Origin: Gammaproteobacteria bacterium
Lineage (GTDB): Bacteria > Pseudomonadota > Gammaproteobacteria > Ga0077536
Reading direction: 5' to 3'
Length of the DNA: 64,000 nt
NCBI GenBank assembly: GCA_963662545.2
Contig: CAXXLL010000003.1
Coordinates: 2,624,001 to 2,688,000, forward strand
Shown here: piece after piece, positions 339-54,619 of the stretch
How the letters are laid out: each line of letters begins with the position of its first letter
Position numbering within the stretch: position 1 is the stretch's first letter
Made by a program: the position numbers and the translations under genes
The notes under the pieces: generated by a model
The model's database searches: none
Seen by the model: only the letters and a program-made list of their open reading frames with translations
Told to the model about the DNA's origin: nothing

Positions 339-1019
339 ATGGCTCGTTACAACCCGATCCTCAAGCTGTTCGGTACCTCACCGGTCCGCCCGCTTCAGCG
401 ACACATGGCGAAAGTGATTGAATGCGCACAAGAGCTGTTGCCACTGTTCGAGGCCGTGATCGCTCGCGACGAAAATGGCATCGACGCGGCGCAAGAGAAG
501 ATCGCGAAGCTCGAGAACGAGGCGGACGATCTTAAGCGCGATCTGAGACTGAATCTGCCGCGCACACTGTTTCTCCCCGTTGAGCGGCGGGACCTCCTGG
601 AAGTGCTCACGATGCAGGATAAGATCGCCAATTGCGCCAAGGACATCGCGGGTCTGATTCGCGGTCGCAAGATGTCGCTGCCCGACGAGTTCGGACCGCG
701 GTACCTGGATTTCGTGAAGCGGAGTATCGACGCCTGCACGCAGGCGCAAAAAGCCATCAACGAGCTCGATGAACTGGTGGAAACCGGTTTCAGAGGTTCG
801 GAGGTAACGCTCGTACAGGCACTGATTACCGAGCTGGACCGGATCGAAAAGGATACCGACGTGATACAGGTCGAAATTCGCACAGCCCTGTTCGCGATAG
901 AACGCAATCTCCCCCCCATCGATGTGATGTTCCTCTACCGACTCATCGATTGGACAGGTGACCTCGGGGACCGCGCGCAGCGCGTCGGCAGTCGCCTGCA
1001 ACTAATGCTCGCCAAATAG
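339..1019 (+). CDS. DUF47/TIGR00153 family phosphate transport regulator (PhoU-like)
   Basis: 226 aa; motifs SPVRPLQRHM, LENEADDLK, FLPVERRDLL, D..QRVGSRL; directly upstream of a PiT gene. Confidence 0.92.
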   Translation: MARYNPILKLFGTSPVRPLQRHMAKVIECAQELLPLFEAVIARDENGIDAAQEKIAKLENEADDLKRDLRLNLPRTLFLPVERRDLLEVLTMQDKIANCAKDIAGLIRGRKMSLPDEFGPRYLDFVKRSIDACTQAQKAINELDELVETGFRGSEVTLVQALITELDRIEKDTDVIQVEIRTALFAIERNLPPIDVMFLYRLIDWTGDLGDRAQRVGSRLQLMLAK

Positions 1020-1026
1020 TCCGTAA

Positions 1027-2280
1027 GTGGAACACGAGATCCTCTATCTCGTGTTGGCGGGTCTGTTCGGCCTGTTCATGGCCTTTGGTATTGGGGCCAA
1101 CGACGTCGCCAATGCCATGGGAACCTCCGTTGGCGCGGGCGCCCTGACCGTCAGACAGGCGGTTATCATCGCGGCGGTGTTCGAGTTTAGCGGCGCGGTG
1201 CTGGCCGGCGGCGAGGTCACGGCCACCATCCGCAAGGGGATCATCGACGTGGGACTATTGTCGGGGACCCCCGATCTGCTCGTCTACGGCATGCTCGCCT
1301 CGCTTCTCGCCGCCGGGACCTGGCTTCTGGTTGCGTCCTATTTCGGCTGGCCCGTGTCGACAACCCACTCCATCGTCGGCGCCATCGTGGGCTTCGCGAT
1401 CGCCGCTATCGGCGTCGAGGCGGTCGAGTGGGGGAAGGTGGGGTACATCGTCATGAGCTGGGTGGTGTCGCCAATCCTGGCGGGCACGATTTCCCTTGCG
1501 TTATTCGCGACCGTGCGGCATTTGATACTGGATACCGACGACCCGTTTCGCAACGCCAAGCGATACGTGCCCTTTTATATCTTCCTGGTCGGGTTCATCA
1601 TTGCGTTGGTGACCCTGCTCAAAGGGTTCAAACACGTCGGCCTGTCCATTTCGACCGGAGCGAGTTACGGCCTAGCCGCGCTTTTCGGACTGCTCGCCAT
1701 GGGGATTGGCGCGCTTATAGTAGGTCGCATTCACCTTGATCCCGCCGCCGACCGCGAGTTTCACTTTGCGAATGTGGAGAAGGTGTTCGCGGTGCTGATG
1801 ATGACCACCGCGTGCGCGATGGCGTTCGCGCACGGATCCAACGACGTCGCCAATGCTATCGGTCCGGTCGCGGCCATCGTGGGCGTGGTCCAAAGCGGCG
1901 GTGACGTCGCCCAGCAATCTGGTCTCCCGTTGTGGATTTTATTGATCGGAGCGGTCGGAATCGTGGCCGGTCTCGCCATGTTCGGACAGAAGGTGATGGC
2001 AACCATAGGTTCGGGAATAACCGCGCTCACCCCGAGCCATGGGTTCGCCGTCGAACTCGGCGCAGCCAGTACCGTGGTGCTCGCTTCCAGTATCGGCCTG
2101 CCCATCTCAACTACGCATACGCTCGTCGGTGCCGTTCTCGGGGTGGGGTTCGCGCGGGGAATCGCTGCGATCAACCTCCGGATCGTGCGCACGATCTTCA
2201 TTTCGTGGATCGTCACGCTCCCGGCCGGTGCTTTCCTCGCCGTGGTCTTCTACTTCGTGCTGAAAACAATCCTTGGCTAA
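1027..2280 (+). CDS. Inorganic phosphate transporter, PiT family
   Basis: GANDVANAMGT and AHGSNDVANAIGP signatures, PVSTTHS/PISTTHT repeats, many transmembrane segments. Confidence 0.95.
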   Translation: MEHEILYLVLAGLFGLFMAFGIGANDVANAMGTSVGAGALTVRQAVIIAAVFEFSGAVLAGGEVTATIRKGIIDVGLLSGTPDLLVYGMLASLLAAGTWLLVASYFGWPVSTTHSIVGAIVGFAIAAIGVEAVEWGKVGYIVMSWVVSPILAGTISLALFATVRHLILDTDDPFRNAKRYVPFYIFLVGFIIALVTLLKGFKHVGLSISTGASYGLAALFGLLAMGIGALIVGRIHLDPAADREFHFANVEKVFAVLMMTTACAMAFAHGSNDVANAIGPVAAIVGVVQSGGDVAQQSGLPLWILLIGAVGIVAGLAMFGQKVMATIGSGITALTPSHGFAVELGAASTVVLASSIGLPISTTHTLVGAVLGVGFARGIAAINLRIVRTIFISWIVTLPAGAFLAVVFYFVLKTILG

Positions 2281-2467
2281 CGTATTTCTCCACTACTGAA
2301 TCGCGGCGAAACGTCGGTTCGCCGGCGAATTCCGCCGATTCGAGCAGATTAAGAGCCACGGCAGTTGAGGAACGACGGATCGTTCAATTCTCGTCTTTTG
2401 CGGCGCGGCACCAACGATCGCTTTCGTGTTGCTGATGTCACGAGCGACGGAGTAAGCGTCGCAGCGT

Positions 2468-2866
2468 TCAGCTTTCCTTGTAGAAGGTGAATTCCATTTC
2501 CACCGCGGCGTGGAGCGGTAATGCGGTCACGCCCACCGCCGTTCTCGTCGGCAGGTGGCCTTCGGCCGTGAACACAGAATCCCACGCCGCGTTGATCGCC
2601 GGGAAGTTGTCGAATTCAGTGGTGAAAATACGCGCCGACACCATATCGTCCAAGGACAGACCAAAATCCGGTAGAGCGGCTACAAGGTTCTCCAGGATCT
2701 TGACGGTCTGTGGCCCCGCGCCGCCGGGTTCGAGCTGGCCCGAGGTCTTGTCGAGCGCGATCATGCCCGCGGTCTGATAATTCGGCCCTGCCTTGACCAG
2801 TGGACTGTAGCGGAAACGGGGCGCCGGAAGGTTGGCGGAACTCAGCGTTTCGATCATTTTTTTCAT
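2468..2866 (-). CDS. RidA/YjgF/UK114 family protein
   Basis: YSPLVKAG, FPAINAAW, PTRTAVGVTALPLHAAVEMEF; start placed at ATG 2866 (ATG 2857 also possible). Confidence 0.9.
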   Translation of the reverse strand: MKKMIETLSSANLPAPRFRYSPLVKAGPNYQTAGMIALDKTSGQLEPGGAGPQTVKILENLVAALPDFGLSLDDMVSARIFTTEFDNFPAINAAWDSVFTAEGHLPTRTAVGVTALPLHAAVEMEFTFYKES

Positions 2867-2966
2867 CACCTGCTTATTCAACAACTTTTTAAGGGCCGCG
2901 ACCGCCCTCGTGCAATTGGCGAACTATTCTGTTCGCAATCGATCGGAGCCGCTCGAAGACTAGAAC

Positions 2967-4601
2967 CTATTCCTGCTCGAGCACGAGTTCGATCACCGCC
3001 GCGGTCCCCGCCGCCATCGCCTTATCCAGAGTATCGTCGAAACCATCATTGGCCTCGACCCGCGCGCCGAAAAGGCCGAAAGATTGCGCGAACGCCGCGA
3101 AATCGGGATTCACAAGATCGTTGCCGATGCGCCGCCCGGGATAGCAGCGGTCCTGATGCGCTTCGATCGTGCCGTATTTACTGTTATTAAATACGAGCAG
3201 AAGCGGCGTCGCACCGTATTTGGCGGCCGTCGCAAGTTCCATCCCCGTCATCAGCATACCGCCGTCGCCGACGAAACCCACCACCCTGCGGCCGGGAAAT
3301 GCCAGCGACGCGCCAATGGCCGCCGGCACCCCATAGCCCATCGCGCCGTTGATCGGCGCGAGCAGACGGCCCGGACGGCGATACTCGCGGTAGCGTTGCG
3401 GCCACAGCGTGAAATTTCCCGCGTCGAGCGTGACGATAGCATCGTCCGGCAGGCGCGCGTTGAGGCTCGACATGACCCGGCCAGGATCGAGCCGCGCATC
3501 ATTCGAAGGCGGCTTCGACGCGGTCACGTATGCCGCGCGCAGGCGTTTACACCAGGCTTTACGGTTTTCCCTGTCATCGAGTTCGATCGAGCTAAGCGCT
3601 GCGGCGGCGGCCGCGACATCGGCGCACAGGCTCAAATCGGTATCGTAGTTGAGCCCGAGTTCGGCGCGGTTTGGATAGATCTGTATGAGCACTCGGGATA
3701 TGCCGTTCCTGAATGCGGTATAGCCGCGCGTCGTCGGTGCGTCGAGACGGGCGCCCAGTACGAGCAAGCAATCGGACTGTTCGGCAAAGTCCCACAGATC
3801 GGCATGCGTACTGAGACCAAGATAGCCGACGTACGACGGATGCGTGTTGTCGAAATGATCCTGGCGGCGAAAAGACACACAGACGGGCAACGCATTGCGG
3901 CGCGCAAATCGTTCGATTTTCTGAATGACGGCGTCGTCGACGGCGCCGCCGCCAAGGATGATGAGGGGCCGCTCGGCGCCGTTCAAACGGTTTTCTATAT
4001 CGTGGAGTTCCGTTTGGGTGAGTCCATGGCGCACCAAGGGTTGCGGCATTTCGGTCGCCGCTGCGACCTCCTCGCCGAGGACGTCTTCCGGAAACACGAG
4101 CACGACTGGACCGGGTCGGCCGCTCTGCGCCTGGTGAAAAGCGCGGGCAAACGCACCCGGAATGGCTTCCGCACGGTTGACCTGCTCCACGTGCTTCACC
4201 AGCGGTGTGAAGAACGCTTCGAAATCGATTTCCTGAAAGGCATCGCGGCCGAGATCGCCGCGTGCCACCTGACCGACGCCGAGCACCATTGGTATCGACG
4301 CCTGACGCGCGATATGCAAGGCGATCGAAGCATTCGTCGCGCCGGGTCCCCGCGTAACGAAACACGCGCCGGGCCTCCCTGTGAGCTGCGCTTGCGCGGC
4401 GGCCATCATGGCCGCGCCGCTTTCGTGGCGGCAGGAGACGAGGCGCACGCGATCCGTCTCGTCGTACAGCGCATCGAGTACCGGCAGATAGCTTTCACCG
4501 GGGACACAGAATAACGTGTCGACGTCGTGCATTAGCAGGGCGTCGACGACCAGGCGGCCACCGGTGGTCTGCGCCTTCGTTAAAGCCCCTGCCCGCTTCA
4601 T
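2967..4601 (-). CDS. Thiamine pyrophosphate-dependent enzyme (acetolactate synthase large subunit-like)
   Basis: FCVPGESYL, CRHESGA, TRGPGATN, GAMGYG and GDGG...NN TPP motif; start uncertain (4601 or 4661). Confidence 0.9.
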   Translation of the reverse strand: MKRAGALTKAQTTGGRLVVDALLMHDVDTLFCVPGESYLPVLDALYDETDRVRLVSCRHESGAAMMAAAQAQLTGRPGACFVTRGPGATNASIALHIARQASIPMVLGVGQVARGDLGRDAFQEIDFEAFFTPLVKHVEQVNRAEAIPGAFARAFHQAQSGRPGPVVLVFPEDVLGEEVAAATEMPQPLVRHGLTQTELHDIENRLNGAERPLIILGGGAVDDAVIQKIERFARRNALPVCVSFRRQDHFDNTHPSYVGYLGLSTHADLWDFAEQSDCLLVLGARLDAPTTRGYTAFRNGISRVLIQIYPNRAELGLNYDTDLSLCADVAAAAAALSSIELDDRENRKAWCKRLRAAYVTASKPPSNDARLDPGRVMSSLNARLPDDAIVTLDAGNFTLWPQRYREYRRPGRLLAPINGAMGYGVPAAIGASLAFPGRRVVGFVGDGGMLMTGMELATAAKYGATPLLLVFNNSKYGTIEAHQDRCYPGRRIGNDLVNPDFAAFAQSFGLFGARVEANDGFDDTLDKAMAAGTAAVIELVLEQE

Positions 4602-4895
4602 CGAGTCACCACTTCGAGCATTCGCTTTCGAGCGCGAGCCCTTGGAGCCCGCCGTAGCCATGCAGAATAGTCGCGTTCCACCCGCGTCCCCCAGTTTCCG
4701 CTTCACGTAGGCGCCAGTATATCCGCGACGCCCCGAAACCGACGATGCGTGGTCCAAGGCGCGCCCGGCAATCACGAATCCTGTCGTGCTGGCCGGCGAA
4801 TGTTTCCTGCGCCCCAATTAAGACGCCCTATCATCGGGATTATCGAATATAAAATAGCGCTACAAGATCACACGAAATCGAAAGGCCATACCACA

Positions 4896-5486
4896 ATGAA
4901 CCGCACCCAACTCAAGGTCTTCTTCAACTTCCGCAGCCCTTACTGCTATCTCGCCTCTCGTTCTCTGTTCGAGCGGCTTCGAGCCTATGATATCGAGATC
5001 GAATGGCGATCACTGGGAGGCTGGGACGGACGCTCGGCACCGGAGCGCGCCAAGGTCAAGGTGCCGCTCACACGCCAGGACGTCGCGCGCTGGTGCAAGC
5101 ACCTCGACATCCCCTTCACACCACCGCCGATCACGACGGATCCGACCCCCGCCGGACTCGTCTCCTTCGCCGCCGAAGACGCCGGCAAGCTCGAAGACTA
5201 CGTGGTCACGGTTATGTGGGCGGAGTGGGCCGAAGGGCAGGACATCGGTCAAGTCGAGGTTCTCGAAAAAGTCGCTGGCGCGATCGGTCTGGATACCAAG
5301 CGGGTCAAGGCCGCCATTGACTCGCGCGATTATGAGCTGCGGCTACAGGACAACTGGGCCGAAGCCTTATCGCTCGGCGTCATCGGCGTGCCGAGTTTCG
5401 TGGTGGGCGACCAGATCTTCTGGGGCAACGATCGCGTCGATTTCCTGGAGGATCATCTTGTCGAACTGGGCTTGAAGATAGCGTGA
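4896..5486 (+). CDS. 2-hydroxychromene-2-carboxylate isomerase / DsbA (GST-kappa) family protein
   Basis: FNFRSPYCYL and GVIGVPSFVV...FWGNDR motifs. Confidence 0.88.
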   Translation: MNRTQLKVFFNFRSPYCYLASRSLFERLRAYDIEIEWRSLGGWDGRSAPERAKVKVPLTRQDVARWCKHLDIPFTPPPITTDPTPAGLVSFAAEDAGKLEDYVVTVMWAEWAEGQDIGQVEVLEKVAGAIGLDTKRVKAAIDSRDYELRLQDNWAEALSLGVIGVPSFVVGDQIFWGNDRVDFLEDHLVELGLKIA

Positions 5487-19876: not shown

Positions 19877-20635
19877 CTAATGCGGCCGGTGCTTGGAATT
19901 ACTGTGTTGCGTTTCCGGCGCAAAGTCCAGCCGTATCCCCCGAGGTTTGGGTGGCGGGTCTTTTCTGGACTTGATCCAGTTTAAAAGAGGTTGCCATTGA
20001 GAGATGTCTTTGCGCGCACGGGACGACGCAAGCTCGTGGACGCCAAGCCCGCGATCGGTGGCGTGCAAGTAGTTCTGGGTGTCGCGCAAAACCGTCACCA
20101 ATTCGATGTCCAGGCTGTCCAGGAAGCTCATCAGTTTGCGGTACATGATGGTCTTTTCCCGGACTCTGTTTGCAATCACGCCGAGCTTGCCCGATGAACG
20201 GCTGACTTTGGCAACCAGCAGCAGGTCGGCCATCAGATGCGACGCGGCGTGAATGTCGGTGTCTGAGGTCAAAACCGGCACCAGAATCGCATCTGCCGAC
20301 TGGGTAAACTCGCACAGCCGCCGCACCCCAAGACCCGCCGGTGTGTCTACAATCAACTGCCTAACCTCTGCCGGTACACTGAGTTGCCAGCTACGGGTCT
20401 TGCGGGAATTGAAGTGGTAAGCGGCAATGCCGTGTATCGCCGGCCGCTCGGGTGGACGCTTGTCGAGCCAATGCATGCTCGACCCCTGAGGATCGCAATC
20501 CATCAGGGCCGGAGCGCCTTCCATCAGGGCAAAACAGCTTGCCAGATTGGTGCACAGGGTGGTCTTGCCCGAACCCCCTTTGGGGTTGAGCACGACAATC
20601 TTGAGCAGATCACGACGGCTGGGGATAGTGATCAT
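19877..20635 (-). CDS. ParA/Soj family ATPase (no parB nearby)
   Basis: NPKGGSGKTT, DCDPQGS, IVDTPAG; start uncertain (20635 or 20713). Confidence 0.88.
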   Translation of the reverse strand: MITIPSRRDLLKIVVLNPKGGSGKTTLCTNLASCFALMEGAPALMDCDPQGSSMHWLDKRPPERPAIHGIAAYHFNSRKTRSWQLSVPAEVRQLIVDTPAGLGVRRLCEFTQSADAILVPVLTSDTDIHAASHLMADLLLVAKVSRSSGKLGVIANRVREKTIMYRKLMSFLDSLDIELVTVLRDTQNYLHATDRGLGVHELASSRARKDISQWQPLLNWIKSRKDPPPKPRGIRLDFAPETQHSNSKHRPH

Positions 20636-20799
20636 TTGCCGGAAACCAGTGTATGTTTTGCCTGAGTGTTCCTGAGTATGCGCCTGGTAACTGGATTCAT
20701 CCACCCGGCTCAAGCCGATTTACTCTCTCATGTGAATAGTAAGGTCAACCCTTGACGCCAAGGACGACCGCTCGCGCCCGTGGCGCGCGGCTCCAATCT

Positions 20800-21195
20800 C
20801 ACCATGCCCCGATAACGCCATCGGCGTGTAGGTACAGCCGGACGACGGACACCGGCCGCCACCGCCAAGATTGCATCATCATCATTCCTTGCCCGCTTGC
20901 GTCGTCCGCCTTGAGAGTTCTTTGACAGCTTCGAGTTACCGGCCGGACCGGACGTCACGCGCGCTTCGGACATCGCCGAACGCCACAGTAGCGACGGGAC
21001 CGGTATTACCCGGCCATCGGCGATCGCACGTTGGAAATTTCGCACATTGTCGGCTCCATCCCTGAAGCCCATCCCGCGTACTTCGAGATCGGCCGCGGGT
21101 ATTCCGGCCTTGTCCAAAGCATCACGGAGTTCCGCTTCACGCCATCGATCCGCGACCACGACGGCCGGCCGGGCGAAGCGATCAAGCGCAGTGTC
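20800..21195 (-). pseudogene. Phage terminase large subunit, C-terminal fragment
   Basis: ADRWREAEL, RGMGFRDG, SLLWRSAMSEAR...PAGNSKLSK, R.NDD..ILAV; 5' part replaced by the repeat at 21192. Confidence 0.7.
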
Positions 21196-21372
21196 AACGG
21201 CGCCGCCGCCTCCCGCGCAGGCTCCAACAAGTGAGACTACGAGACCCATAGGTACTTAAGTCAAACGCCGACGGCGTTGGAGGATCCCCCCCCTGGTGCT
21301 TCATGCCAACGGGTCCCATCCGCGACTCTTTCCACATGCGCGGTAAACTCAATTTTCGCGCATGTGGAGCCC
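21192..21372 (+). repeat. ~180-bp non-coding direct repeat, copy 1
   Basis: Aligns with 53964-54140, e.g. CCAACAAGTGAGAC, GAGACCCATAGGTACTTAAG, CCCCCTGGTGCTTCA, GCGACTCTTTCCACATGCGCG. Confidence 0.9.
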
Positions 21373-21615
21373 GGTTAAGCTAGGAATGGCCGACGAAGAT
21401 AGCTGCCGCACGCCATCGTTGCTGCTTGCCCGGGGACAAGTTTTTCTGCGTACGGCGACGTTCGAAATTTTATAGCTCAGGCTAAGCCACGCCTCGACCG
21501 TAGCTGAAAGGGCCCGGGTTTGGCACCGATAATTAAGGGACTTATGCATTAAAATCAGCAAGCCGCCTGTTCAGGCTTCCTTCCGAACCAGCTTGTAACG
21601 ATTGGATGGTACTTT

Positions 21616-22098
21616 CTATGGCTGCTGAATCTTGCTCAAGATTTCATCACGTAATTCGACAGCCAAAACATCGAGCACGCCTTTAATTTCGATTCCGTTT
21701 TCGTATGCACACGCTTTGAAATCCGCGAGATGTTCGGCCGTTAGAACATTTTCCCCCACATAGTCGAAACAGGCCTCTTGAATTTCATAGGGTTGCTTGT
21801 TTTTGAGGGTTTCCATGAGTTCCGGGGCAAGTTTCTGTGCGAGTGCCGGGGCGTTAATTCGGATAGAAATGGATCTCCCTAAATCCGTTAACGTACGTGG
21901 GCTCGCGCCAGTGACAGGAACAGGAGGGAGGCGCCCCAAGATCTTTTTGATGTCTTCACGAATTTCCTTAATGAATTCTCCCAAGGAGGTTCTGTCGGAG
22001 TTCACCGCTCCGACCCATTTCCCAACCGCAAAAACGGCGCCGATAGCGGCAAGCGCCGAAATTACAATCACTGCTGGGTTGCTGACTCCAACCTCCAT
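21616..22098 (-). CDS. Hypothetical single-TM protein (IS1595 passenger)
   Basis: 160 aa; N-terminal TM helix, coiled segment, SPRTLTDLG motif. Confidence 0.75.
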   Translation of the reverse strand: MEVGVSNPAVIVISALAAIGAVFAVGKWVGAVNSDRTSLGEFIKEIREDIKKILGRLPPVPVTGASPRTLTDLGRSISIRINAPALAQKLAPELMETLKNKQPYEIQEACFDYVGENVLTAEHLADFKACAYENGIEIKGVLDVLAVELRDEILSKIQQP

Positions 22099-22211
22099 TA
22101 TGCAGCCCTCGTCGCGCTATCAACCGGCAAGTAGTCTACACGCTCTTTGAACAAAACTAATGGATTCAGTTGGTTGGTTATATTGTGTGTCAAAAAAATT
22201 TCAATACCACA

Positions 22212-22400
22212 TCATCTTGTGTATCTTCGACGCACCAATTTCCAGCGCCGTTCCCGTTCTTCTTTCGTAGGCTCTCGATTCTCCCTTGGCGGCGGGTCCA
22301 TACGCGCCCCTAGAACTTGGCGGATAGCCTCGGTAAACTCGTCCTCCATAATAGGATCGCGGTCCTTCGGGAGTAGTCTGGGCTTGCGCTTCATGTTCAT
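22212..22400 (-). CDS. Small basic hypothetical protein (IS1595 passenger)
   Basis: 62 aa; ATGA overlap with the protease stop. Confidence 0.6.
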   Translation of the reverse strand: MNMKRKPRLLPKDRDPIMEDEFTEAIRQVLGARMDPPPRENREPTKEERERRWKLVRRRYTR

Positions 22401-22858
22401 GGCGTACTGATAGTCACTTCGCCCGTAACCCCGTTGTACATCATTTGGAAACGCCTGAGAAATGTTCGTCCTATTAGCACAAGGTGTTGTTGGCCCCCGC
22501 CAATTAGATCGACACCAGCGAAAGAACCGTATAGCGTAAAACTCAGCGCAGGAATGTATATTTGGGCCGCGTACATATTAGCTAGATAATTCCCACTGAT
22601 CCCACCGAAATTTGAGCGATCGACGACAGGAAGCCCCAACCGCGTGGCAAGGCTCGCATCGATACAACTAATTGTCGCGCCAGTATCTATAACGGCATGA
22701 ACTTGCTGAATTAACGTTGTTGGAAGTGCAGCAGGTTTATTTGGATCGTAATTTGGGTCAAACCCAACGTCCACCAATATAGTAGGGCCGTAACCAACAA
22801 GAGAATCTTGTGCTTGGTGCCCGTTTGTGCTGACGAAGCCACAGCTAACACTAGGCAT
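22397..22858 (-). CDS. Retropepsin-like (clan AA) aspartyl protease
   Basis: AVIDTGATISCID...LGL and LIGRTFL motifs; start MPSVSC overlaps the upstream stop by 8 nt. Confidence 0.88.
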   Translation of the reverse strand: MPSVSCGFVSTNGHQAQDSLVGYGPTILVDVGFDPNYDPNKPAALPTTLIQQVHAVIDTGATISCIDASLATRLGLPVVDRSNFGGISGNYLANMYAAQIYIPALSFTLYGSFAGVDLIGGGQQHLVLIGRTFLRRFQMMYNGVTGEVTISTP

Positions 22859-23093
22859 GTATCTGTTGGTACAGTACTGAAGCTGGCAAGGATTGATTTT
22901 TGACGCCAACCTCTCGTATGAGATAAGGCCCCTTACCAAATTTCTGAGTTGCTTCGTGTGCTGCATCGTTGAACGTATCGAACGCCCCAATCATCTTCTC
23001 ATCATGGAGCAGCACCCATTTACCCATGTAATTGGTTTCAAAGTTTTCGCGCATCTTTTCAAACGCTGAAATATCTTTATCTAATGCGTCCAT
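22851..23093 (-). CDS. DUF5678-like small protein
   Basis: AGGAGAGG RBS; Y.GKWVLLHDEKMIGAFDTF..A...A...FG..PYLIREVG. Confidence 0.75.
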   Translation of the reverse strand: MDALDKDISAFEKMRENFETNYMGKWVLLHDEKMIGAFDTFNDAAHEATQKFGKGPYLIREVGVKNQSLPASVLYQQIHA

Positions 23094-23210
23094 ATCCCTC
23101 TCCTTTTGCCGCGCCGAGTCTAACTTTTTGTTTTTAGCAAGTGTATGACAACGAATTGACGTCATCTACTTCAAGTTTTACAAGGTATTAACTCCTATCG
23201 ATTAAAAGCG

Positions 23211-24155
23211 TCATGCAATCAAGGCTTTATAACTAAGCTTCCTTCCTCTGATTCCCTTTGCTAATGCGGCCATCCGATCAATCGTATCCACTTCACAGTT
23301 CCCCTCGTTCAGTCGGAAAGCCGCTTCATTGACGTAGCGGCCTAGATGCTTGTTCGATACGTGATGCCACGTGCCGATCACCGAGCGCTTGAAGACGCTC
23401 CATACACTCTCGATGCCGTTCGTGTGAATTTCGCCACGGACATACTCACCAGCGCTGTGCTTGACTGATTCGTGCTGGTATTGGTTTAGGATGGTCGGCA
23501 GGGCCGTATAAGCGCCGGCATCGTCCGTGTAGACGGTGGCCCCTTGCTCGGTATGGGCTTCGACGAAATTGATGAAGGTGCGCGCGTCAGTGGCGCTCAC
23601 GGGCTCGGCTGCAACCTTACCCCCGCGTTCCCGCGCCCCGATGATGGGTGTTTTGCCTGCGGTGCCGCGCCCAGCTTTGCGTTTCTTCGTTTCGTGCTTG
23701 TTGCGCTCTTTGCCGCCTACGTAGGTCTCGTCCACCTCTACGACATTCGCCAACTTGAAGTCCCCGCTCTTGCTCGCTTCGCGAACGCGGTGAAGCATAT
23801 GCCAAGCCGTGCGGTATTGCACACCGAGTTCCTTGCTAAGCTGCATGGCGCTGATCCCTTTGCGGCCCGTCAGGATCGAGTAGATAGCGTAAATCCAATG
23901 CTGAAGCGGTAGGGGGCTTGAATGCAGGCAGGTCCCTGTGGTTACCGTGAAATGCTTGCGACAAGACTTGCACCAGTAGTGATTCGGCTTGCTGTCTGAT
24001 GGCGGCCTGATCTCATCAACGCTACCGCAATGTGGGCAAACTGGCTGGCTGTTCCAAAGAACCTGCTCAAACCATTCGCGGCAGGCTGCGTCATCGGGGA
24101 AGCGCCGGTAAAGCTGGGGGACGCTGATAGTCTTGGCGATGCGTTTTTTCTTCAC
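23211..24155 (-). CDS. IS1595 family transposase
   Basis: CPHC/CKSC Zn ribbon, HTH (ISAMQLSKELGV), VEVDETY, VYTDD, HTNGIESVW, YVNEAAFRLN. Confidence 0.95.
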   Translation of the reverse strand: MKKKRIAKTISVPQLYRRFPDDAACREWFEQVLWNSQPVCPHCGSVDEIRPPSDSKPNHYWCKSCRKHFTVTTGTCLHSSPLPLQHWIYAIYSILTGRKGISAMQLSKELGVQYRTAWHMLHRVREASKSGDFKLANVVEVDETYVGGKERNKHETKKRKAGRGTAGKTPIIGARERGGKVAAEPVSATDARTFINFVEAHTEQGATVYTDDAGAYTALPTILNQYQHESVKHSAGEYVRGEIHTNGIESVWSVFKRSVIGTWHHVSNKHLGRYVNEAAFRLNEGNCEVDTIDRMAALAKGIRGRKLSYKALIA

Positions 24156-24990
24156 GGAGGTCTCCTATATCCTGCTTATTATGGTATAGGAGTTTCCTCG
24201 AATAATCAACTACTTTATTTCCCTGCTGATTTTAATGCATAAGTCCCATAATTAACCTAGACCCGTTCTAAGGGATCACTCCACTCGCGATCGAGCTTCA
24301 TCCAACGGTCGGTTTGCCTTTTGCAAGCACCTCAGGCGCACGACCTGCTTGCACCAGCTCAAGCCTCTGCCCGAAAAATCCCGGTGGGTAAGTTCTTCTG
24401 GTCTTTGGCATCGTCGACGTCTCTCATCGTCAAGGTTTAGATGCCCATGACAGCGAGGCAAGACCACATAGTGTTGCCTCTGCACACTACCATGAAAGCG
24501 CAATAAAATATTGCAACGTCCCATATCATCCACGACTGACTTGAATTGAACATCGAAGTTGAGCACGTCGTGGAAAAGCTAGTGAGTAGATCCAGGGCGG
24601 GCATTGTTAGGTGTGCACGCACGATTTTCGTGCTCTCTGTCGCACAGGGAACAGGGTTCGGTCATGTCTCGATGGTTGACGTATAAAAGGGGCCGTGCTG
24701 GGTGCGAGGCCGTTCCACCAGTGGTGTGTTCGCACCCGTTTGTTAGCGTGGCCCGGATTGCGTTCGGCTTGTCCTCGTTGATGGCACGCTCACGCGTGAC
24801 CTCGTATGAAAGAGTGATCCCCAATCGCAATCTCACCCAGCACAACCTCGTGTTGATATTGGGAGAAATGGAGATGGTACGCAAGACCTCAGACAGTCGT
24901 TTGTGTCTGACGTCAGCGCCTTTGGGACAAATTGAGGTAATTGCATAACGGGGGATTTCTGGCTCATCGTAGTAACCGAAGGGAACGAAG

Positions 24991-25365
24991 ATGAGACAGA
25001 AATCAATGAGCAAGAACGACCCGGCGGAGAGAACGGTTCGGGATATTCGCCGCAAGACACGCAAGCAGTATACGGCTGAGGAGAAGATCCGGATCGTGGT
25101 GTCGGGCCTGCGCGGCGAGGAGAGCATCGCCGCCTTGTGCCGCCGCGAGGGCATCGCCGAGGGTCTGTATTACAGCGGGTCGAAAGAGTTTTTGGAAGCG
25201 GGCAAGAAGCGGCTCGCCGGCGACACCGGGCGCCAAGCGACCTCGGGTGAGGTTAAAGGCCTGCGCCAGGAGATGCGCGACTTGAAGGAGTGGGTCGCCG
25301 AACTTTCGCTGGAGAACCGTCTTCTCAAAAAAAACATGATCGGGCATGGGGGCGGCGAGCAATGA
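24991..25365 (+). CDS. IS3 OrfA
   Basis: RKQYTAEEKIRIV...SIAALCRREGI HTH followed by a coiled coil. Confidence 0.88.
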   Translation: MRQKSMSKNDPAERTVRDIRRKTRKQYTAEEKIRIVVSGLRGEESIAALCRREGIAEGLYYSGSKEFLEAGKKRLAGDTGRQATSGEVKGLRQEMRDLKEWVAELSLENRLLKKNMIGHGGGEQ

Positions 25366-26342
25366 GGTATCCCGCATCCGAGAAGCTGGAGATCATCCGC
25401 CGGGTCGAGCAGTCCCACCTGGGCGTTGGGTCCACTTTGGACAAGCTGGGCATTCCGAAGACCACCTTTTATCGCTGCTACGATCGCTTTCTGGCCTTTG
25501 GCGACGCCGGTCTTGAGGATCGCAACAGCAGCCCAGGCCGGGTGTGGAACCGTATCCCGGATGATGTCCGGGGGCAGATCATCGATCTTGCCCTGGAGGA
25601 GACGCAACTGTCGCCCCGGGAACGGGCCGTCAGGTTTACGGACACCAGGGGCTACTTTGTCTCGGAAGCCTCGGTTGACCGGCTTCTCAAGGCCCACGAC
25701 CTGATCACCAGCCCCGCTTTCGTGGTCATCAAGGCAGCCGATGAGTTCCGCAACAAGACCACGGCGCCGAACCCGCTGTGGCAGACCGGCTTCACCTATC
25801 TCAAGGTCATCGGCTGGGGCTGGTTTTACCTGTCGAGCATCCTGGACGACTATTCCCGCACCATCATTGCGTGGAAGCTCTGCACCAACATGACGGCGGA
25901 CGATGTGACGGCAACACTGAAGTTGGCGCTAGAAGCCTCAGGCTGCAATCGCGCCAATGTCGTCCACAAGCCGAGGCTGCTCAGCGACAACGGCTCGTCC
26001 TATATCTCCAGCGATGTGGCTGAATGGCTCGAGGACCACGGTATGGATCACGTTCGGGGCGCACCGTATCACCCGCAAACCCAAAGCAAGATCGAGCGCT
26101 GGCATCAAACGCTGAAGAACCGGATCCTGCTTGAAAATTATTATCTACCCGGCGATCTCGAAAACCAGATCAGCGCCTTCGTCGATCACTACAACAACCA
26201 ACGCTACCACCAGAGCATCGGCAACGTAACTCCAGCTGACGCCTACTTTGGACGCCACACCGCCATCATCGAAAAGAGAAAAAAGATCAAAAAACTGACC
26301 ACCCAAAACCGCCGCTTGAACCATCAAAGCCAAGCGGCTTAA
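25362..26342 (+). CDS. IS3 OrfB DDE domain, first catalytic Asp apparently mutated
   Basis: WQTGFTY (expected WQTDFTY), LSDNG, KIERWH. Confidence 0.85.
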   Translation: MRYPASEKLEIIRRVEQSHLGVGSTLDKLGIPKTTFYRCYDRFLAFGDAGLEDRNSSPGRVWNRIPDDVRGQIIDLALEETQLSPRERAVRFTDTRGYFVSEASVDRLLKAHDLITSPAFVVIKAADEFRNKTTAPNPLWQTGFTYLKVIGWGWFYLSSILDDYSRTIIAWKLCTNMTADDVTATLKLALEASGCNRANVVHKPRLLSDNGSSYISSDVAEWLEDHGMDHVRGAPYHPQTQSKIERWHQTLKNRILLENYYLPGDLENQISAFVDHYNNQRYHQSIGNVTPADAYFGRHTAIIEKRKKIKKLTTQNRRLNHQSQAA

Positions 26343-31651: not shown

Positions 31652-33510
31652 AACCCAAGCGCTATACCGTCCACGGAAACGGGGCAACTCCAGCTACGGA
31701 CGAGGAGACCCTCTGGTGGGAGGTCTGGTTGCCCGTGCGACGTGATCGAGCGGCGACCACGGGCCGATTCAAACAGCTGGCAGAAGGGCTAGGGTTCCAG
31801 CTTGCGCCCGGCGAGCTCCAGTTTCCGGAACGCACCGTGTTGCTCGCGTTTGGGTCGGCGGCCCAGATGAAGCAATCCGTCCTAACGTTGAACAGCATTG
31901 CGGAGTTGCGGCGTGCGAAAGAAACGGCAGAGTTCTTCGATGCGCTGCCGCCCGAGGAGCAACCTGCATGGCTCGACGACCTGCGCGCCCGTTTGACCGT
32001 GCCTGGCCAGGACACCGACGTGCCCCACGTGTGCCTGTTTGATACCGGCGTCAATCATGGGCACCCGCTCATTGCAGCTGGCCTGGCCACCCCGGATTTG
32101 CATACCGTGGAGCCTGGCTGGGGAACGAATGATGGCGATGGCCACGGGACGGAAATGGCCGGACTCGCCCTGGCCGGCAATCTGACTGAGGCGCTCGCCT
32201 CGCAAGAGCCACTAGACGTTGCGCATCGGCTCGAGTCGGTCAAGCTGTTGCCCGCGGACGGCGCCAACGGCAACGATGCCAGGCATCACGGTTATCTCAC
32301 TACCGAGGCAGTCGCGCGTCCGGAGATAACGACGCCGCAACGCCGCCGCCTGTTCAGCATGGCCGTGACCGCCCGTGACAACCGCGATCGCGGCCGACCT
32401 TCCGCCTGGTCGGCGGCGATCGATCGGCTTGCTGCGGATTCGGAAGGACAGGGTGAGATGCCACGGCTCTTTGTCGTGGCCGCCGGGAACGTGAAAGACC
32501 CCAATGCCTGGTCAGAATATCCGGCGAGCAACACGACTGATGGCATTCATGATCCCGGGCAAAGCTGGAACGCGCTAACCGTGGGTGCTGCGACCCAGCT
32601 TGTGCAGATTACCGAACCCGATGCCGGGGGCTATCAACCCATCGCGCCGGTCGGCGGCCTCAGCCCGTTCAGCACCACTTCGGCGACCTGGCAGGCTAAT
32701 TGGCCGCTGAAACCAGATATCGTCCTCGAAGGCGGCAATGCCGCCAAGGATGCCCTGGGCGCAGTATGGATGCCGAGTCTGAGCCTCCTCACCTCGAATT
32801 CGAAACCCGAAGAGCGCTTGTTCACCACCACGAACGCGACCAGCTCCGCGTCGGCAATGGCCGCACGGATGGCGGCCCAGTTGATGGCGGAGTACCCGGG
32901 ACTCTGGCCCGAGACCATTCGCGCGTTGATCGTACATTCTGCAGAGTGGTCGGACGCGATGCGTCAGGCGTTCCTGCCCGCCAACGACCAGCCGACAAAG
33001 ATGGAAATCGCCAACCTCGTGCGCCACTGTGGGTTTGGCGTCCCCGATCTGGATCGAGCTATGTGGAGCGTGGAGAACTCGCTCACCATGGTCTGCGAGG
33101 AACAGCTGCATCCGTTCAGGCGACACGGCCGCAAGGAACCGACCTTGCGGGACATGAACCTGCATCGGCTGCCCTGGCCTCTGGAAGAACTGGAGGCGCT
33201 CGGCGAGACGCCGGTCTCGATGCGGGTGACGCTGTCCTATTTCATAGAACCCAACCCATCTGAGCGCGGGTTCTCCGGACGATACCGCTACGAATCACAC
33301 GGCCTGAGGTTCGACGCGAAGCGACCCGCAGAATCAGAGGCGGACTTCAGAGCGCGAATCAATGCGGCCGCACGCGATGAGGAGGAGCGGACGCGGAGCG
33401 GTGGCGATGATCCCGGCTGGGTAGTTGGCAAGCAGAACCGGCACAAGGGATCCCTGCATTCTGACAATTGGCTGGGAAGCGCCGCGGACCTTGCCAGTCG
33501 AGGCGTGTGA
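31648..33510 (+). CDS. S8 subtilase (IetS/Y4bN-like), truncated at both ends; start and stop supplied by IS ends
   Basis: FDTGVN..HP, GHGTEMAG, AAGN, KPDIV.EGGN, NATSSA, WPETIRALIVHSA; native part 31693-33507. Confidence 0.85.
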   Translation: MKPKRYTVHGNGATPATDEETLWWEVWLPVRRDRAATTGRFKQLAEGLGFQLAPGELQFPERTVLLAFGSAAQMKQSVLTLNSIAELRRAKETAEFFDALPPEEQPAWLDDLRARLTVPGQDTDVPHVCLFDTGVNHGHPLIAAGLATPDLHTVEPGWGTNDGDGHGTEMAGLALAGNLTEALASQEPLDVAHRLESVKLLPADGANGNDARHHGYLTTEAVARPEITTPQRRRLFSMAVTARDNRDRGRPSAWSAAIDRLAADSEGQGEMPRLFVVAAGNVKDPNAWSEYPASNTTDGIHDPGQSWNALTVGAATQLVQITEPDAGGYQPIAPVGGLSPFSTTSATWQANWPLKPDIVLEGGNAAKDALGAVWMPSLSLLTSNSKPEERLFTTTNATSSASAMAARMAAQLMAEYPGLWPETIRALIVHSAEWSDAMRQAFLPANDQPTKMEIANLVRHCGFGVPDLDRAMWSVENSLTMVCEEQLHPFRRHGRKEPTLRDMNLHRLPWPLEELEALGETPVSMRVTLSYFIEPNPSERGFSGRYRYESHGLRFDAKRPAESEADFRARINAAARDEEERTRSGGDDPGWVVGKQNRHKGSLHSDNWLGSAADLASRGV

Positions 33511-33606
33511 GAACGGCGGTGACAAATTAGTCCACGGAAGCGGCGGGATTTCCCAGCCGCGGGCGGAGTAAAACTCTGCCACCTGTAGCCTTCGATCTTT
33601 TTTGAG

Positions 33607-35120
33607 ATGGAAGGCGGGAGGATGTACACCGTGGACCTATATCTGCGCGTTCGGCTGGCCTGCCATGTTGATGGTCTGAGCCAGCGAGAGGCGGCAAGTC
33701 GGTTTGGCATTGCGCGCGAGACGGTGAGGAAGATGCTGCGGCATTCGGAACCGCCGGGATATCGGCGACGCCAGCCACCGAAACGCCCGAAACGGGCCCC
33801 CTTCACGGATATCATCGACCGTATTCTGGAGGAGGACCGAACGGTTCACCGTAAGCAGCACCACACGGCGAAGCGTATATTCGAGCGCCTTCGCGACGAA
33901 CATGGCTTCACGGGCAAAGAGACCATCGTGAAGGATTACGTTCGGGAACGGCGCCTTCGTCGGCGTGAGATGTTTGTGCCGTTGTCACATCCTCCGGGCC
34001 ATGCTCAAGCGGACTTTGGCGAGGCGGATGCGATCATCGCCGGCGTCAAGTATCGGGCGCATTTTTTCGTCATGACACTTCCCCACAGCGATGCCTGCTT
34101 CGTTGCGGCCTACCCGTCAGCGACGACGGAGGCCTGGCTGGACGGGCACAACAGAACCTTCGCCTTCTTCGGCGGTGTTCCCCGATCGATTCTCTACGAC
34201 AACGACAAGTGCCTGGTGTCGCGCATCTTGCCGGATGGCACGCGACAACGAACGCGAGCGTTCAGCGGACTGCAGTCCCATTACCTCTTCGAGGACCGTT
34301 ACGGCCGTCCCGGCAAGGGCAACGACAAAGGCAATGTTGAGGGGGTGGTTGGCTACGCCCGACGGAACTTCATGACGCCGCTTCCCCGGTTCGCGAGCTG
34401 GGACGCCTTCAACGCTTACCTGGAGGAACAATGCCGCAAACGGCAAGACGACGTCCTGCGCGGCCACCGCGAGAGCATCGGCGAACGGTTTGTGCGTGAC
34501 CGCGAAGCGTTGAAGAGGCCACTGCCGGCACCGTTCGACGCGTGCGACAAGCAGGGCACGCGGGTCAACTCGCTGTCCCTGGTGCGCTACCGGACGAATG
34601 ACTATTCCGTGCCCGTCGCCTACGGCCATCAGGAAGTCTGGATCCGTGGCTATGTCCACGAGGTGGTTATCGGTTGCGGCGCCGGGATCATTGCCCACAC
34701 CCCCGTTCCTACGACCGGGAAGATAGGGTCTTCGATCCGATCCACTACCTGCCTTTGCTGGAGCACAAGATCGGTGCCCTGGATCAGGCCGCGCCGCTAG
34801 CCGGATGGGAACTGCCTGATGCCTTCCCAACCCTGCGCCGTCTCCTGGAGGCGCGCATGGGCAAGGCCGGCAAGCGGGAATACGTCCAGGTCCTTCGGCT
34901 TCTGGAGACCTTCGATCTCGAGGTGCTTCACGGCGCGGTGAAGGACGCCCTGCGCCTGGGCGCGATCGGCTACGACGCCGTCAAACACCTTGTGCTGTGC
35001 CGTATCGAGCGACGCCCGCCCAAACTCGACCTGGATATCTATCCCTACCTGCCTCGGGCCAACGTGGCGACCACGGCCGCCGCCAGTTATATGAGCTTGT
35101 TGGGTGGAGGCGCGTCATGA
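33607..35120 (+). pseudogene. istA: IS21 transposase IstA, frameshifted
   Basis: 1-nt deletion near 34696 (GCCCACAC versus GCCCGACAC in copy 2). Confidence 0.88.
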
Positions 35121-51306: not shown

Positions 51307-51405
51307 TGAGAACGGCGGTGACAAATTAGTCCACGGAAGCGGCGGGATTTCCCAGCCGCGGGCGGAGTAAAACTCTGCCACCTGTAGCCTTCGATCTTTT
51401 TTGAG

Positions 51406-52920
51406 ATGGAAGGCGGGAGGATGTACACCGTGGACCTATATCTGCGCGTTCGGCTGGCCTGCCATGTTGATGGTCTGAGCCAGCGAGAGGCGGCAAGTCG
51501 GTTTGGCATTGCGCGCGAGACGGTGAGGAAGATGCTGCGGCATTCGGAACCGCCGGGATATCGGCGACGCCAGCCACCGAAACGCCCGAAACGGGCCCCC
51601 TTCACGGATATCATCGACCGTATTCTGGAGGAGGACCGAACGGTTCACCGTAAGCAGCACCACACGGCGAAGCGTATATTCGAGCGCCTTCGCGACGAAC
51701 ATGGCTTCACGGGCAAAGAGACCATCGTGAAGGATTACGTTCGGGAACGGCGCCTTCGTCGGCGTGAGATGTTTGTGCCGTTGTCACATCCTCCGGGCCA
51801 TGCTCAAGCGGACTTTGGCGAGGCGGATGCGATCATCGCCGGCGTCAAGTATCGGGCGCATTTTTTCGTCATGACACTTCCCCACAGCGATGCCTGCTTC
51901 GTTGCGGCCTACCCGTCAGCGACGACGGAGGCCTGGCTGGACGGGCACAACAGAACCTTCGCCTTCTTCGGCGGTGTTCCCCGATCGATTCTCTACGACA
52001 ACGACAAGTGCCTGGTGTCGCGCATCTTGCCGGATGGCACGCGACAACGAACGCGAGCGTTCAGCGGACTGCAGTCCCATTACCTCTTCGAGGACCGTTA
52101 CGGCCGTCCCGGCAAGGGCAACGACAAAGGCAATGTTGAGGGGGTGGTTGGCTACGCCCGACGGAACTTCATGACGCCGCTTCCCCGGTTCGCGAGCTGG
52201 GACGCCTTCAACGCTTACCTGGAGGAACAATGCCGCAAACGGCAAGACGACGTCCTGCGCGGCCACCGCGAGAGCATCGGCGAACGGTTTGTGCGTGACC
52301 GCGAAGCGTTGAAGAGGCCACTGCCGGCACCGTTCGACGCGTGCGACAAGCAGGGCACGCGGGTCAACTCGCTGTCCCTGGTGCGCTACCGGACGAATGA
52401 CTATTCCGTGCCCGTCGCCTACGGCCATCAGGAAGTCTGGATCCGTGGCTATGTCCACGAGGTGGTTATCGGTTGCGGCGCCGGGATCATTGCCCGACAC
52501 CCCCGTTCCTACGACCGGGAAGATAGGGTCTTCGATCCGATCCACTACCTGCCTTTGCTGGAGCACAAGATCGGTGCCCTGGATCAGGCCGCGCCGCTAG
52601 CCGGATGGGAACTGCCTGATGCCTTCCCAACCCTGCGCCGTCTCCTGGAGGCGCGCATGGGCAAGGCCGGCAAGCGGGAATACGTCCAGGTCCTTCGGCT
52701 TCTGGAGACCTTCGATCTCGAGGTGCTTCACGGCGCGGTGAAGGACGCCCTGCGCCTGGGCGCGATCGGCTACGACGCCGTCAAACACCTTGTGCTGTGC
52801 CGTATCGAGCGACGCCCGCCCAAACTCGACCTGGATATCTATCCCTACCTGCCTCGGGCCAACGTGGCGACCACGGCCGCCGCCAGTTATATGAGCTTGT
52901 TGGGTGGAGGCGCGTCATGA
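51406..52920 (+). CDS. istA: IS21 transposase IstA
   Basis: N-terminal HTH, AQADFG, LYDN, KGNVE. Confidence 0.93.
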   Translation: MEGGRMYTVDLYLRVRLACHVDGLSQREAASRFGIARETVRKMLRHSEPPGYRRRQPPKRPKRAPFTDIIDRILEEDRTVHRKQHHTAKRIFERLRDEHGFTGKETIVKDYVRERRLRRREMFVPLSHPPGHAQADFGEADAIIAGVKYRAHFFVMTLPHSDACFVAAYPSATTEAWLDGHNRTFAFFGGVPRSILYDNDKCLVSRILPDGTRQRTRAFSGLQSHYLFEDRYGRPGKGNDKGNVEGVVGYARRNFMTPLPRFASWDAFNAYLEEQCRKRQDDVLRGHRESIGERFVRDREALKRPLPAPFDACDKQGTRVNSLSLVRYRTNDYSVPVAYGHQEVWIRGYVHEVVIGCGAGIIARHPRSYDREDRVFDPIHYLPLLEHKIGALDQAAPLAGWELPDAFPTLRRLLEARMGKAGKREYVQVLRLLETFDLEVLHGAVKDALRLGAIGYDAVKHLVLCRIERRPPKLDLDIYPYLPRANVATTAAASYMSLLGGGAS

Positions 52921-53963: not shown

Positions 53964-54140
53964 GTCAAAACCTCGGCGCCTCGCGCGCAGGCCCCAACAA
54001 GTGAGACACCGAGACCCATAGGTACTTAAGCCAAACGCCGACGTGGTTGGAGGACCCCCCTGGTGCTTCAAGCCAAAGGGTCCCATCGGCGACTCTTTCC
54101 ACATGCGCGATAAACTTAATTATCGCGTATCGGGAACCTG
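53964..54140 (+). repeat. ~180-bp non-coding direct repeat, copy 2
   Basis: Homologous to 21192-21372; contains ATGCGCGATAA-ACTTAA-TTATCGCGTAT at 54103-54130. Confidence 0.9.
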
Positions 54141-54619
54141 GTTCAGCCATGATGTGAGCGTCCGGGACGTGAGCCGGGGCCCGCGTCGACCGAGACCGAC
54201 AGGGGCCAGCAATACTGCGCACAGGGTGTCATCGAAGGGTCATGAGATTCTGCGCGCCAGGGTCGCCCGGGCCATCGCATGGGGCTATCGCCCCGCGGCC
54301 ACCGGCACGCCTTGCTCGCGGATCACGCGCTATCGCCGTCCGCTGCGAGGGCGGCTACTCGTCAAGGCGGCGCGGGAATTGCGGGGCCGTCTAGCTATGA
54401 CGGCTTTCAGCGAAGGGGTGTTGTCCGGCGTGTGCATCGACGCGCCGTTGAGTGAGCATGCACGACGGGGCGAGTATCCTGGTGGCTGGGCAGCTTCACG
54501 ACCTAAAGCATGCTCACGCATTGACCGGCTCCACTGGGGGGAGGCGGTTTGGCTGTCAATTTCAGGGCCTAAAACATTGTTAGAAGAGCTGCAACGTGGA
54601 GCCAAAACGGCGCTCACAG

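Follow-up and report, generated by a model that had tools for sequence, protein, structure and literature searches.

What might a retropepsin-like aspartic protease and a small gene overlapping it do together inside a bacterial insertion sequence (IS)? The question is raised by a 64,000-nucleotide (nt) stretch of a Gammaproteobacteria genome (GCA_963662545.2, contig CAXXLL010000003.1, positions 2,624,001 to 2,688,000), referred to in its entirety as the window, in which an IS1595-family element carries genes for an 80-amino-acid (aa) DUF5678-like protein and a 153-aa protease. An earlier note had grouped these two genes with a following 62-aa open reading frame (ORF) as a candidate toxin-antitoxin (TA) or defence system. 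The DUF5678-like gene and the protease gene constitute a robust, widely distributed and previously uncharacterised two-gene module that is bicistronic and, like TA systems, consists of a tightly coupled small gene and effector gene travelling as a unit. In its most likely mechanism, to which we assign a probability of roughly 0.4, the pair would be a TA-like module in which a conserved, disordered tail of the small protein engages a cytoplasmic retropepsin.

Organisation of the gene pair

The three ORFs were recovered on the minus strand at the positions given in the earlier note (Table 1). The 80-aa and 153-aa genes share 8 nt (22851-22858), and the TGA of the protease gene overlaps the ATG of the 62-aa ORF as ATGA. 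All three lie inside an IS1595 element, as the same note had stated, which is evident from 24-bp perfect inverted repeats, an 8-bp target duplication and an IS1595 transposase. The ATG of the 80-aa gene is preceded at five bases by AAGGAGAGG. A 104-aa reading of this gene from an upstream ATG at 23165 was rejected in favour of the ATG at 23093 because relatives align from the latter, which also bears the ribosome-binding site. Scanning for promoters revealed no sigma-70-like site on the strand of the genes, and the 131-nt upstream region contains no inverted repeat.

Conservation and distribution of the module

At E ≤ 0.001 the protease has 79 relatives of about 150 aa. One genome per species was scanned with 12 closer sequences, a 39-sequence alignment being too divergent; this yielded 117 stretches encoding a protease relative, and the best 80 of these (L001-L080) were kept, each with 4 kb of flank per side. 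Because L004 and L005 come from opposite ends of a single 40-kb Nitrospinota contig, the independent places number 79; both ends carry the same sequence inverted, pair included, which could be explained either by an assembly artefact or by a large inverted repeat.

The loci were fetched by the protease alone, and a DUF5678-like gene was found beside it in 79 of the 80 (tblastn with the 80-aa protein of the window, E ≤ 2.3e-18), a positive outcome, from the protease side, of the co-occurrence check that the earlier note had asked for. In 78 loci the small gene is located directly upstream on the protease strand, in L022 it lies directly downstream on the opposite strand, and in the 80th locus, L037, the contig ends where the small gene would lie. 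Both frames were called in 76 same-strand pairs. Spacings of -8 nt and -14 nt account for 27 pairs each and -26 nt for seven, and 75 of the 76 fall between -29 and +11 nt; the outlier (L071) has a frameshifted protease gene. This arrangement is far beyond chance, and the pair is the tightly coupled unit that had been proposed, independent of its neighbours and patchy in its spread. When the 4,132 ORFs (50 aa or longer) of the 80 loci and the window were clustered, nothing other than the two genes and the antisense shadow ORFs over them recurred in more than six loci; next came a tyrosine-recombinase family (six loci) and the IS1595 transposase (five loci and the window). The 72 upstream neighbours scanned are mixed, ranging from gyrase, EF-Ts, TIM and RtcB to BrnA, Fic, an integrase and HsdR. 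In L069, from a Cyclobacteriaceae metagenome-assembled genome (MAG), the gene directly upstream of the pair (2703-3320) encodes another, different aspartyl protease (206 aa, PF13975, 56 bits).

The loci span at least 12 named phyla, namely Acidobacteriota, Pseudomonadota, Chloroflexota, Latescibacterota, Bacteroidota, Verrucomicrobiota, Nitrospinota, Patescibacteria, Planctomycetota, Spirochaetota, Binatia and Gemmatimonadota. All except one derive from MAGs (79/80), the single cultured isolate being a Granulicella. The distance matrices of the small proteins and the proteases correlate (Mantel r = 0.54, a value reached in 0 of 2000 permutations), and both proteins have therefore been inherited together.

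A retropepsin-like protease, probably cytoplasmic

The 153-aa protein exceeds the Pfam cut-offs of PF13975 (30.0 bits; cut-off 28.2) and PF13650 (27.0; cut-off 24.3) and also matches RVP, so that the Pfam check suggested for its identity came out positive. It scores below the NCBIfam cut-offs for TIGR03698 and TIGR02281 (21 and 19 bits versus approximately 57) and falls into neither subfamily. The match to PF05618 ('putative ATP-dependent zinc protease'), presumably the family of the bacterial proteases RimB and RloA, is marginal (E = 0.14).

Conservation was counted over 74 aligned pairs of relatives. D58, G60 and A61 are kept in all 74, position 59 is occupied by T in 72 relatives and by S in the other two, and G130-R-T-F-L (residues 130-134) is likewise invariant (74/74). 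Judged from this conservation and from the predicted structure, the protease looks active. C65 and H125 are also invariant and C6 is kept in 67 of 74; these three residues could form a metal or redox site outside the catalytic triad. An N-terminal extension, with a helix at residues 16-23, contains a C-G-F motif that is almost invariant.

The AlphaFold2 model of the protease is confident, with a predicted local distance difference test (pLDDT) score of 93.4 and a predicted template modelling (pTM) score of 0.86. A Foldseek search at E ≤ 0.001 matched it to 26 PDB structures, with retroviral and Ddi1 proteases at the top; the best is XMRV protease (E = 9.8e-6, TM-score 0.69 by target), followed by Ddi1, EIAV, HTLV and HIV proteases and the Rickettsia APRc (5c9f). 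APRc is a membrane-embedded protein. In a sequence comparison with solved structures, the Ddi1 protease domain is the best match (E = 0.007). The protein has no transmembrane segment and its maximum hydropathy, KD(19), is 1.26 at residue 102. Because a hydrophobic N-terminal segment is lacking and the N-terminus is part of the confidently modelled fold, we read the protease as cytoplasmic. The description of a single-domain DTG aspartyl protease without a signal peptide thus agrees with the model, with the intact active site and, as to the signal peptide, with the hydropathy profile.

The small protein and its conserved tail

The 80-aa protein matches Pfam DUF5678 (PF18929) weakly (E = 0.0018, 18.5 bits against a cut-off of 23.2, residues 21-59), and 32 of the 74 aligned relatives match it at E ≤ 0.01, with a best value of E = 1.8e-6. 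The match ends short of a conserved tail that marks the protease-linked subfamily. We know of no DUF5678 protein whose function is known.

The 74 aligned small proteins share a mean pairwise identity of 54%. AlphaFold2 predicts a helix (residues 3-21), two strands (26-30 and 33-38), a second helix (41-52) and a further strand (58-61) at pLDDT 81-92, with pLDDT below 50 for residues 67-80. The tail, with the consensus P-P-x-T-L-P-A-S-V-M-Y, is among the best-conserved parts of the protein (L69 in 70/74, P70 in 72/74, A71 in 68/74 and S72 in 73/74), and the residues beyond Y75 vary in length and sequence. Such conservation of a segment predicted not to fold on its own would be expected if it binds a partner or is cleaved by one. 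The toxin-neutralising tails of antitoxins resemble this disordered, conserved C-terminal segment. A nearly invariant tail that is disordered in the model is in keeping with the suggested role of the small protein as an inhibitor or adaptor of the protease.

A PDB sequence search with the small-protein profile gave no matches at E ≤ 10, and a Foldseek search of the model against the PDB gave a best E of 2.2 and no solved relative; a ubiquitin-like or known antitoxin fold was dropped on this basis. Among predicted structures (BFVD), the fold matches pandoravirus DUF5678 proteins (E = 1.7e-3 to 4.8e-3, TM-score 0.59-0.63) and also some phage proteins, and in the Atlas, where the window protein itself is absent, the look-alikes of one homologue belong to hypothetical or DUF5678 clusters only.

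Other architectures of the DUF5678-like domain

The DUF5678-like domain also occurs in tandem, with two units in five clusters (P0088-P0092, 168-172 aa) and four units in three clusters (P0085-P0087, 339-340 aa). Every unit ends with a tail motif followed by a linker, and judged by their sequences these proteins look like polyproteins. Two tail types, L-P-A-S-V-W and I-P-R-Y-I-V, alternate in them with linkers between. In four other clusters (P0111, P0112, P0114 and P0116) the tail of the domain runs on into DUF6998 (PF22522, E = 9.1e-35), in which a D...E-x-K pattern is, by eye, reminiscent of PD-(D/E)xK nucleases. Additional fusions join it to an unnamed domain of approximately 120 aa and, at the C-terminus, to TenA (P0122; 53 member sequences) and a PAPS-reductase domain. 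The L-P-A-S tail motif is missing in the TenA fusion and different in the DUF6998 fusions. A 231-aa 'fusion' of the small protein to the protease (P0103, a single case) was not counted, since its junction looks frameshifted. Taken together, the fusions and repeats cut both ways, as they fit modular partner-swapping like that of antitoxin or regulatory domains as well as a substrate or accessory domain.

The tandem proteins bear on the main rival explanation, in which the small protein would be the functional effector and the protease its dedicated maturase, cutting the tail or the tandem linkers and so freeing or activating the DUF5678-like core in the manner of retropepsin polyprotein processing. 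Natural two- and four-unit proteins built of units with a tail motif and a linker are consistent with this explanation, as are a tail that is conserved yet disordered like cleavage sites, variable residues after Y75 and a catalytic site kept in 74/74 relatives. However, a protease with one substrate would leave the recurrent carriage by ISs and the defence-gene neighbours unexplained, and the explanation overlaps with a version of the TA-like module in which the antitoxin is cleavable. We consider it unlikely, though it deserves serious attention.

The fusions to ordinary enzymes (TenA, PAPS reductase) are compatible with a second alternative, regulated proteolysis of a housekeeping type, in which the small protein would be an adaptor or specificity factor bringing cellular substrates to the protease, with no toxin or addiction involved, similar to RimB with RimA and RimK or to the accessory domains of Ddi1. 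Ddi1 protease domains are among the solved structures nearest in sequence and fold, the genes next to the pair are of the housekeeping kind in many loci, and the cytoplasmic RimB provides a precedent for a non-toxic bacterial retropepsin-like enzyme (PMC12239564). On the other hand, no conserved neighbour genes that might supply substrates or pathway partners exist in the 80 loci, the spread across phyla is patchy with carriage by IS elements and integrase-associated regions, and the window copy is IS cargo, with a GC content of ~0.44-0.52 within the element versus ~0.57-0.63 in the left flank. A housekeeping role is distinctly improbable in our view.

Carriage by mobile elements and defence-related neighbours

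The mobile carriage of the pair recurs beyond the window. In L018, L022 and L063 the pair is enclosed together with an IS1595-type transposase by inverted repeats of 25-30 nt (83-90% complementary), so that at least three other, divergent IS1595 elements carry it, and transposase remnants or partial copies occur within 4 kb in L001, L002, L015 and L080. The four transposases of the window, L018, L022 and L063 are mutually only 33-37% identical and differ in position and orientation, whereas the proteases are 48-80% identical; therefore, divergent elements have acquired the same cargo.

These co-occurrences could also be taken to indicate that the pair is a transposition accessory that serves the IS1595 element, for example by processing or regulating its transposase. 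Yet 73 of the 80 loci have no IS1595 transposase within 4 kb, and the low identity and differing orientations of the transposases that do accompany the pair point to repeated cargo capture rather than a shared core function. We regard this role as extremely improbable.

The L018 element also carries a P63C-domain protein and the L022 element a HicB-family antitoxin. The L022 element (918-5360, 4.4 kb), in which the inverted small gene is convergent with the protease gene and overlaps its end by 4 nt, additionally contains a 90-aa gene ahead of the HicB-family antitoxin gene, a 183-aa ORF and a gene with a LuxR-type helix-turn-helix (HTH). Of 145 immediate neighbours (72 upstream and 73 downstream) compared with PADLOC at E ≤ 1e-10, 14 had a match. 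Strong and specific matches number eight, in seven loci, and include type I restriction-modification subunits, a methyltransferase-HNH protein, Drt3b, Dsr1, SoFic, PDC-S01 and AbiEii, a count that lacks a genomic background and is thus an association and not a proven enrichment.

Proposed mode of action

We propose that the module is self-contained and horizontally mobile and would act like a type II-like TA or abortive-infection pair. The effector would be the cytoplasmic protease, presumably a homodimer like other retropepsins. The small protein would be made first from the shared message, with the protease translated by coupling to it, and its tail would fold onto the protease. There the tail could occupy the substrate cleft, as a pseudo-substrate or as a substrate that is cut slowly, or else lie at the dimer interface. 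So restrained, the protease would become free only on depletion or displacement of the small protein, and an IS1595-family element carrying the module would be more readily retained. From the arrangement and the predicted structures we infer the folding of the tail onto the protease, binding, inhibition, toxicity and the role in addiction or defence.

Several observations weigh against this proposal. The small protein has no DNA-binding domain detectable by Pfam (no HTH, RHH, AbrB or Phd) or by the PDB fold search, whereas classical type II antitoxins usually, though not universally, have one for autoregulation. The two proteins of the pair have acidic pI values (5.5 and 5.3; family medians 5.6 and 5.9), unlike the usual combination of an acidic antitoxin and a basic toxin. 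PADLOC-DB v2 contains no match for any of the four cargo proteins of the window element at E ≤ 1, PHROGs likewise gave nothing significant, and the defence-gene association is subject to the qualification given above. Searches by tblastn of 72,556 plasmids and 50,697 phage records matched neither of the two proteins; these collections are biased to cultured hosts while the loci come almost entirely from MAGs. Inter-protein mutual information over the 74 pairs gave no clear signal and none concentrated on the tail. The protease gene is frameshifted with the small gene intact in L057, L067 and L071 and the reverse occurs in none, a 3:0 pattern that is not significant, the protease gene being twice as long. 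Furthermore, the small gene of L022 is on the opposite strand to the protease, housekeeping genes flank many loci, and the tandem repeats and enzyme fusions suit an antitoxin no better than they do a general accessory or substrate domain. The TA or defence label of the earlier note remains putative: the pair is coupled, autonomous and mobile, but the PADLOC, DNA-binding-domain and plasmid or phage matches that would go with the label were not obtained in the searches just described.

A more far-reaching version, which we hold to be doubtful, is that the pair may be the first TA or abortive-infection module with a retropepsin effector, checked by a pseudo-substrate tail and repeatedly captured by IS1595 ISs for their own retention, with the DUF5678-like domain as a portable regulatory domain that is also paired with other effectors, as in the DUF6998 fusions. 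If the protease is the toxin, it would represent a new enzymatic class in TA and defence biology, and the small protein would be a natural protein inhibitor, or substrate, of a retropepsin. Two unannotated families in any case become one defined module, an obligate coupled pair with a candidate L-P-A-S interaction tail and the catalytic residue D58.

The IS1595-family element, its other cargo and its surroundings

The element contains a series of five consecutive minus-strand genes in the order transposase, 80-aa, 153-aa, 62-aa and 160-aa gene. The transposase matches PF12762 (DDE_Tnp_IS1595, E = 1.2e-42) and the PF12760 zinc ribbon (E = 7.6e-9) in Pfam, and NF033547 (E = 1.3e-57) in NCBIfam. 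An inverted-repeat length of 31 nt at 97% identity, computed initially, was replaced by perfect 24-nt arms, because the near-palindromic target duplication had extended the arms. In the plasmid and phage collections the whole element has no megablast match, and Rfam matched nothing in 21000-24800.

Table 1. Coordinates of the features of the IS1595-family element in the window.
Feature	Position	Strand	Basis or remark
DUF5678-like small protein, 80 aa, pI 5.5; core residues 3-61, conserved and predicted disordered C-terminal tail residues 64-75	22851..23093	-	
Retropepsin-like aspartic protease, 153 aa, pI 5.3; catalytic D58-T-G-A, G130-R-T motif	22397..22858	-	
Shine-Dalgarno-like AAGGAGAGG ahead of the DUF5678-like start codon	23096..23104	-	sequence reading
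62-aa basic protein, pI 10.8, invariant N-R-E-P motif, small conserved family	22212..22400	-	coupled to the protease stop here
160-aa protein, one N-terminal transmembrane segment (residues 8-26), conserved family	21616..22098	-	no Pfam match
IS1595-family transposase, 314 aa, GTG start, zinc ribbon and DDE domain	23211..24155	-	Pfam/NCBIfam
IS1595-family transporter IS, 2,711 bp, four passenger genes	21537..24247	.	terminal inverted repeats and target duplication
Left terminal inverted repeat, 24 nt, perfect match to right arm	21537..21560	+	direct reading of the sequence
Right terminal inverted repeat, 24 nt	24224..24247	+	inverted-repeat search and sequence reading
Target-site duplication ATAATTAA, 8 bp, left copy	21529..21536	+	sequence reading
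Target-site duplication ATAATTAA, 8 bp, right copy	24248..24255	+	sequence reading

The 62-aa and 160-aa proteins have no Pfam match, and both belong to conserved families. A search of 1.84 billion representatives gave the 62-aa protein 13 relatives (56-83 aa, E ≤ 0.001). At the same threshold, 95 other proteins of similar length match the 160-aa transmembrane protein. The 62-aa family exhibits an invariant N-R-E-P...E...R motif near the C-terminus, and most relatives begin at the third residue of the window protein. Neither protein was found in the 80 loci (tblastn, best E = 1.1), and a profile of the 62-aa family run over the loci and the window matched the window copy only.

These families could be components of a three- or four-gene system particular to this element, in which the 62-aa protein and perhaps the transmembrane protein would act as substrate, regulator or membrane effector. 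The ATGA overlap that ties the 62-aa gene to the protease stop, the existence of both families as real ones and the location of the four genes on one strand inside the element speak for such a system. As neither family occurs in the 80 pair-bearing loci, where the pair is complete without them, the system is largely refuted as a general property and, also for this element, we rate it as very improbable. The earlier proposal of the 62-aa protein as a third component is thus not supported (absent in 80/80 loci), and neither is that of the 62-aa protein, the transmembrane protein or the transposase as substrates, the first two being found in 0/80 loci and an IS1595 transposase or its remnant within 4 kb in only 7/80. 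The 62-aa and transmembrane proteins are real genes and separate cargo of this IS1595 element outside the conserved module, and may form a pair of their own.

The region around the element is dense in mobile and partition functions, with a gene for a ParA/MinD-type ATPase (19877-20713) on one side and IS3-type OrfA/OrfB (HTH_Tnp_1 and rve; 24991-26342) on the other. The DNA directly to the left of the element (21204-21385) recurs 32.8 kb away at 53974-54152 with 81-90% identity, and this repeat overlaps the start of an unannotated 173-aa ORF (20728-21249) without a Pfam match. Furthermore, a repeat in two copies 17.8 kb apart (33508-34993 and 51307-52793), identical at 100% in sampled 300-nt stretches, is probably another multi-copy mobile element.

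Comparison with known systems

The earlier note knew of no characterised function for the pair, and none was found in the literature covered, which included few subscription journals; the DUF5678-protease pair itself was not found there either, so that an earlier computational mention is possible. The same literature contained no study of DUF6998, PF22522, PF18929 or TIGR03698, only unrelated papers for DUF5678 by name and for an aspartyl protease combined with an antitoxin, no aspartic protease toxin, and RimB, RloA and APRc as the only studied bacterial retropepsin-like proteases, a class with numerous members. A 2009 survey noted that little was known about prokaryotic single-domain clan AA peptidases (PMC2642776), and an unrelated small retropepsin-domain protein has been listed near archaeal type III CRISPR loci (PMC3973734).

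The small protein shares with DUF5678 proteins a predicted fold like that of the pandoravirus members and matches in 32 of its 74 relatives, but the window protein itself is below the family cut-off. With retroviral and Ddi1 proteases the window protease shares the fold at 17-20% sequence identity, and it lacks their polyprotein or UBL/UBA context. Further parallels are RimB and RloA, which are encoded in rimK/rlo operons and cut polyglutamate tails, RimB being cytoplasmic and RloA secreted (PMC12239564; also PMC11957791), and Rickettsia APRc (PMC4140852). All three have the single-domain clan AA fold and a D-T/S-G active site, and RimB is likewise cytoplasmic, but in the accessible text of these papers none is described with a DUF5678 partner.

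Like type II TA systems, the module consists of a small upstream gene overlapping a larger effector gene, is autonomous and patchy across phyla, adjoins other TA and defence genes and rides on transposable elements. In contrast to them, both of its proteins are acidic, the small protein has neither a detectable DNA-binding domain nor a solved fold relative, and PADLOC does not include the pair.

The element itself is an IS1595-family 'transporter IS' with four passenger genes. It has in common with these ISs a transposase with zinc ribbon and DDE domain, terminal inverted repeats, an 8-bp target duplication, which is the typical length in the IS1595 family, and genes unrelated to transposition. 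The primary paper on IS1595-family transporter ISs is reportedly that of Siguier et al. in 2009, and the concept of IS1595-family ISs with passenger genes is cited in PMC3129680.

TA gene pairs are also carried by Tn3-family transposons (PMC7157771). The module differs from these pairs in that its carrier in the window is of the IS1595 family, its components are unrelated to known TA families and most of its loci (73/80) are without an IS1595 transposase. It resembles them as a candidate addiction-type pair that is an integral passenger of a transposable element, and its carriage by IS1595-family elements would extend the stabilisation of transposons by addiction modules, as described for the Tn3 family, to simple insertion sequences.

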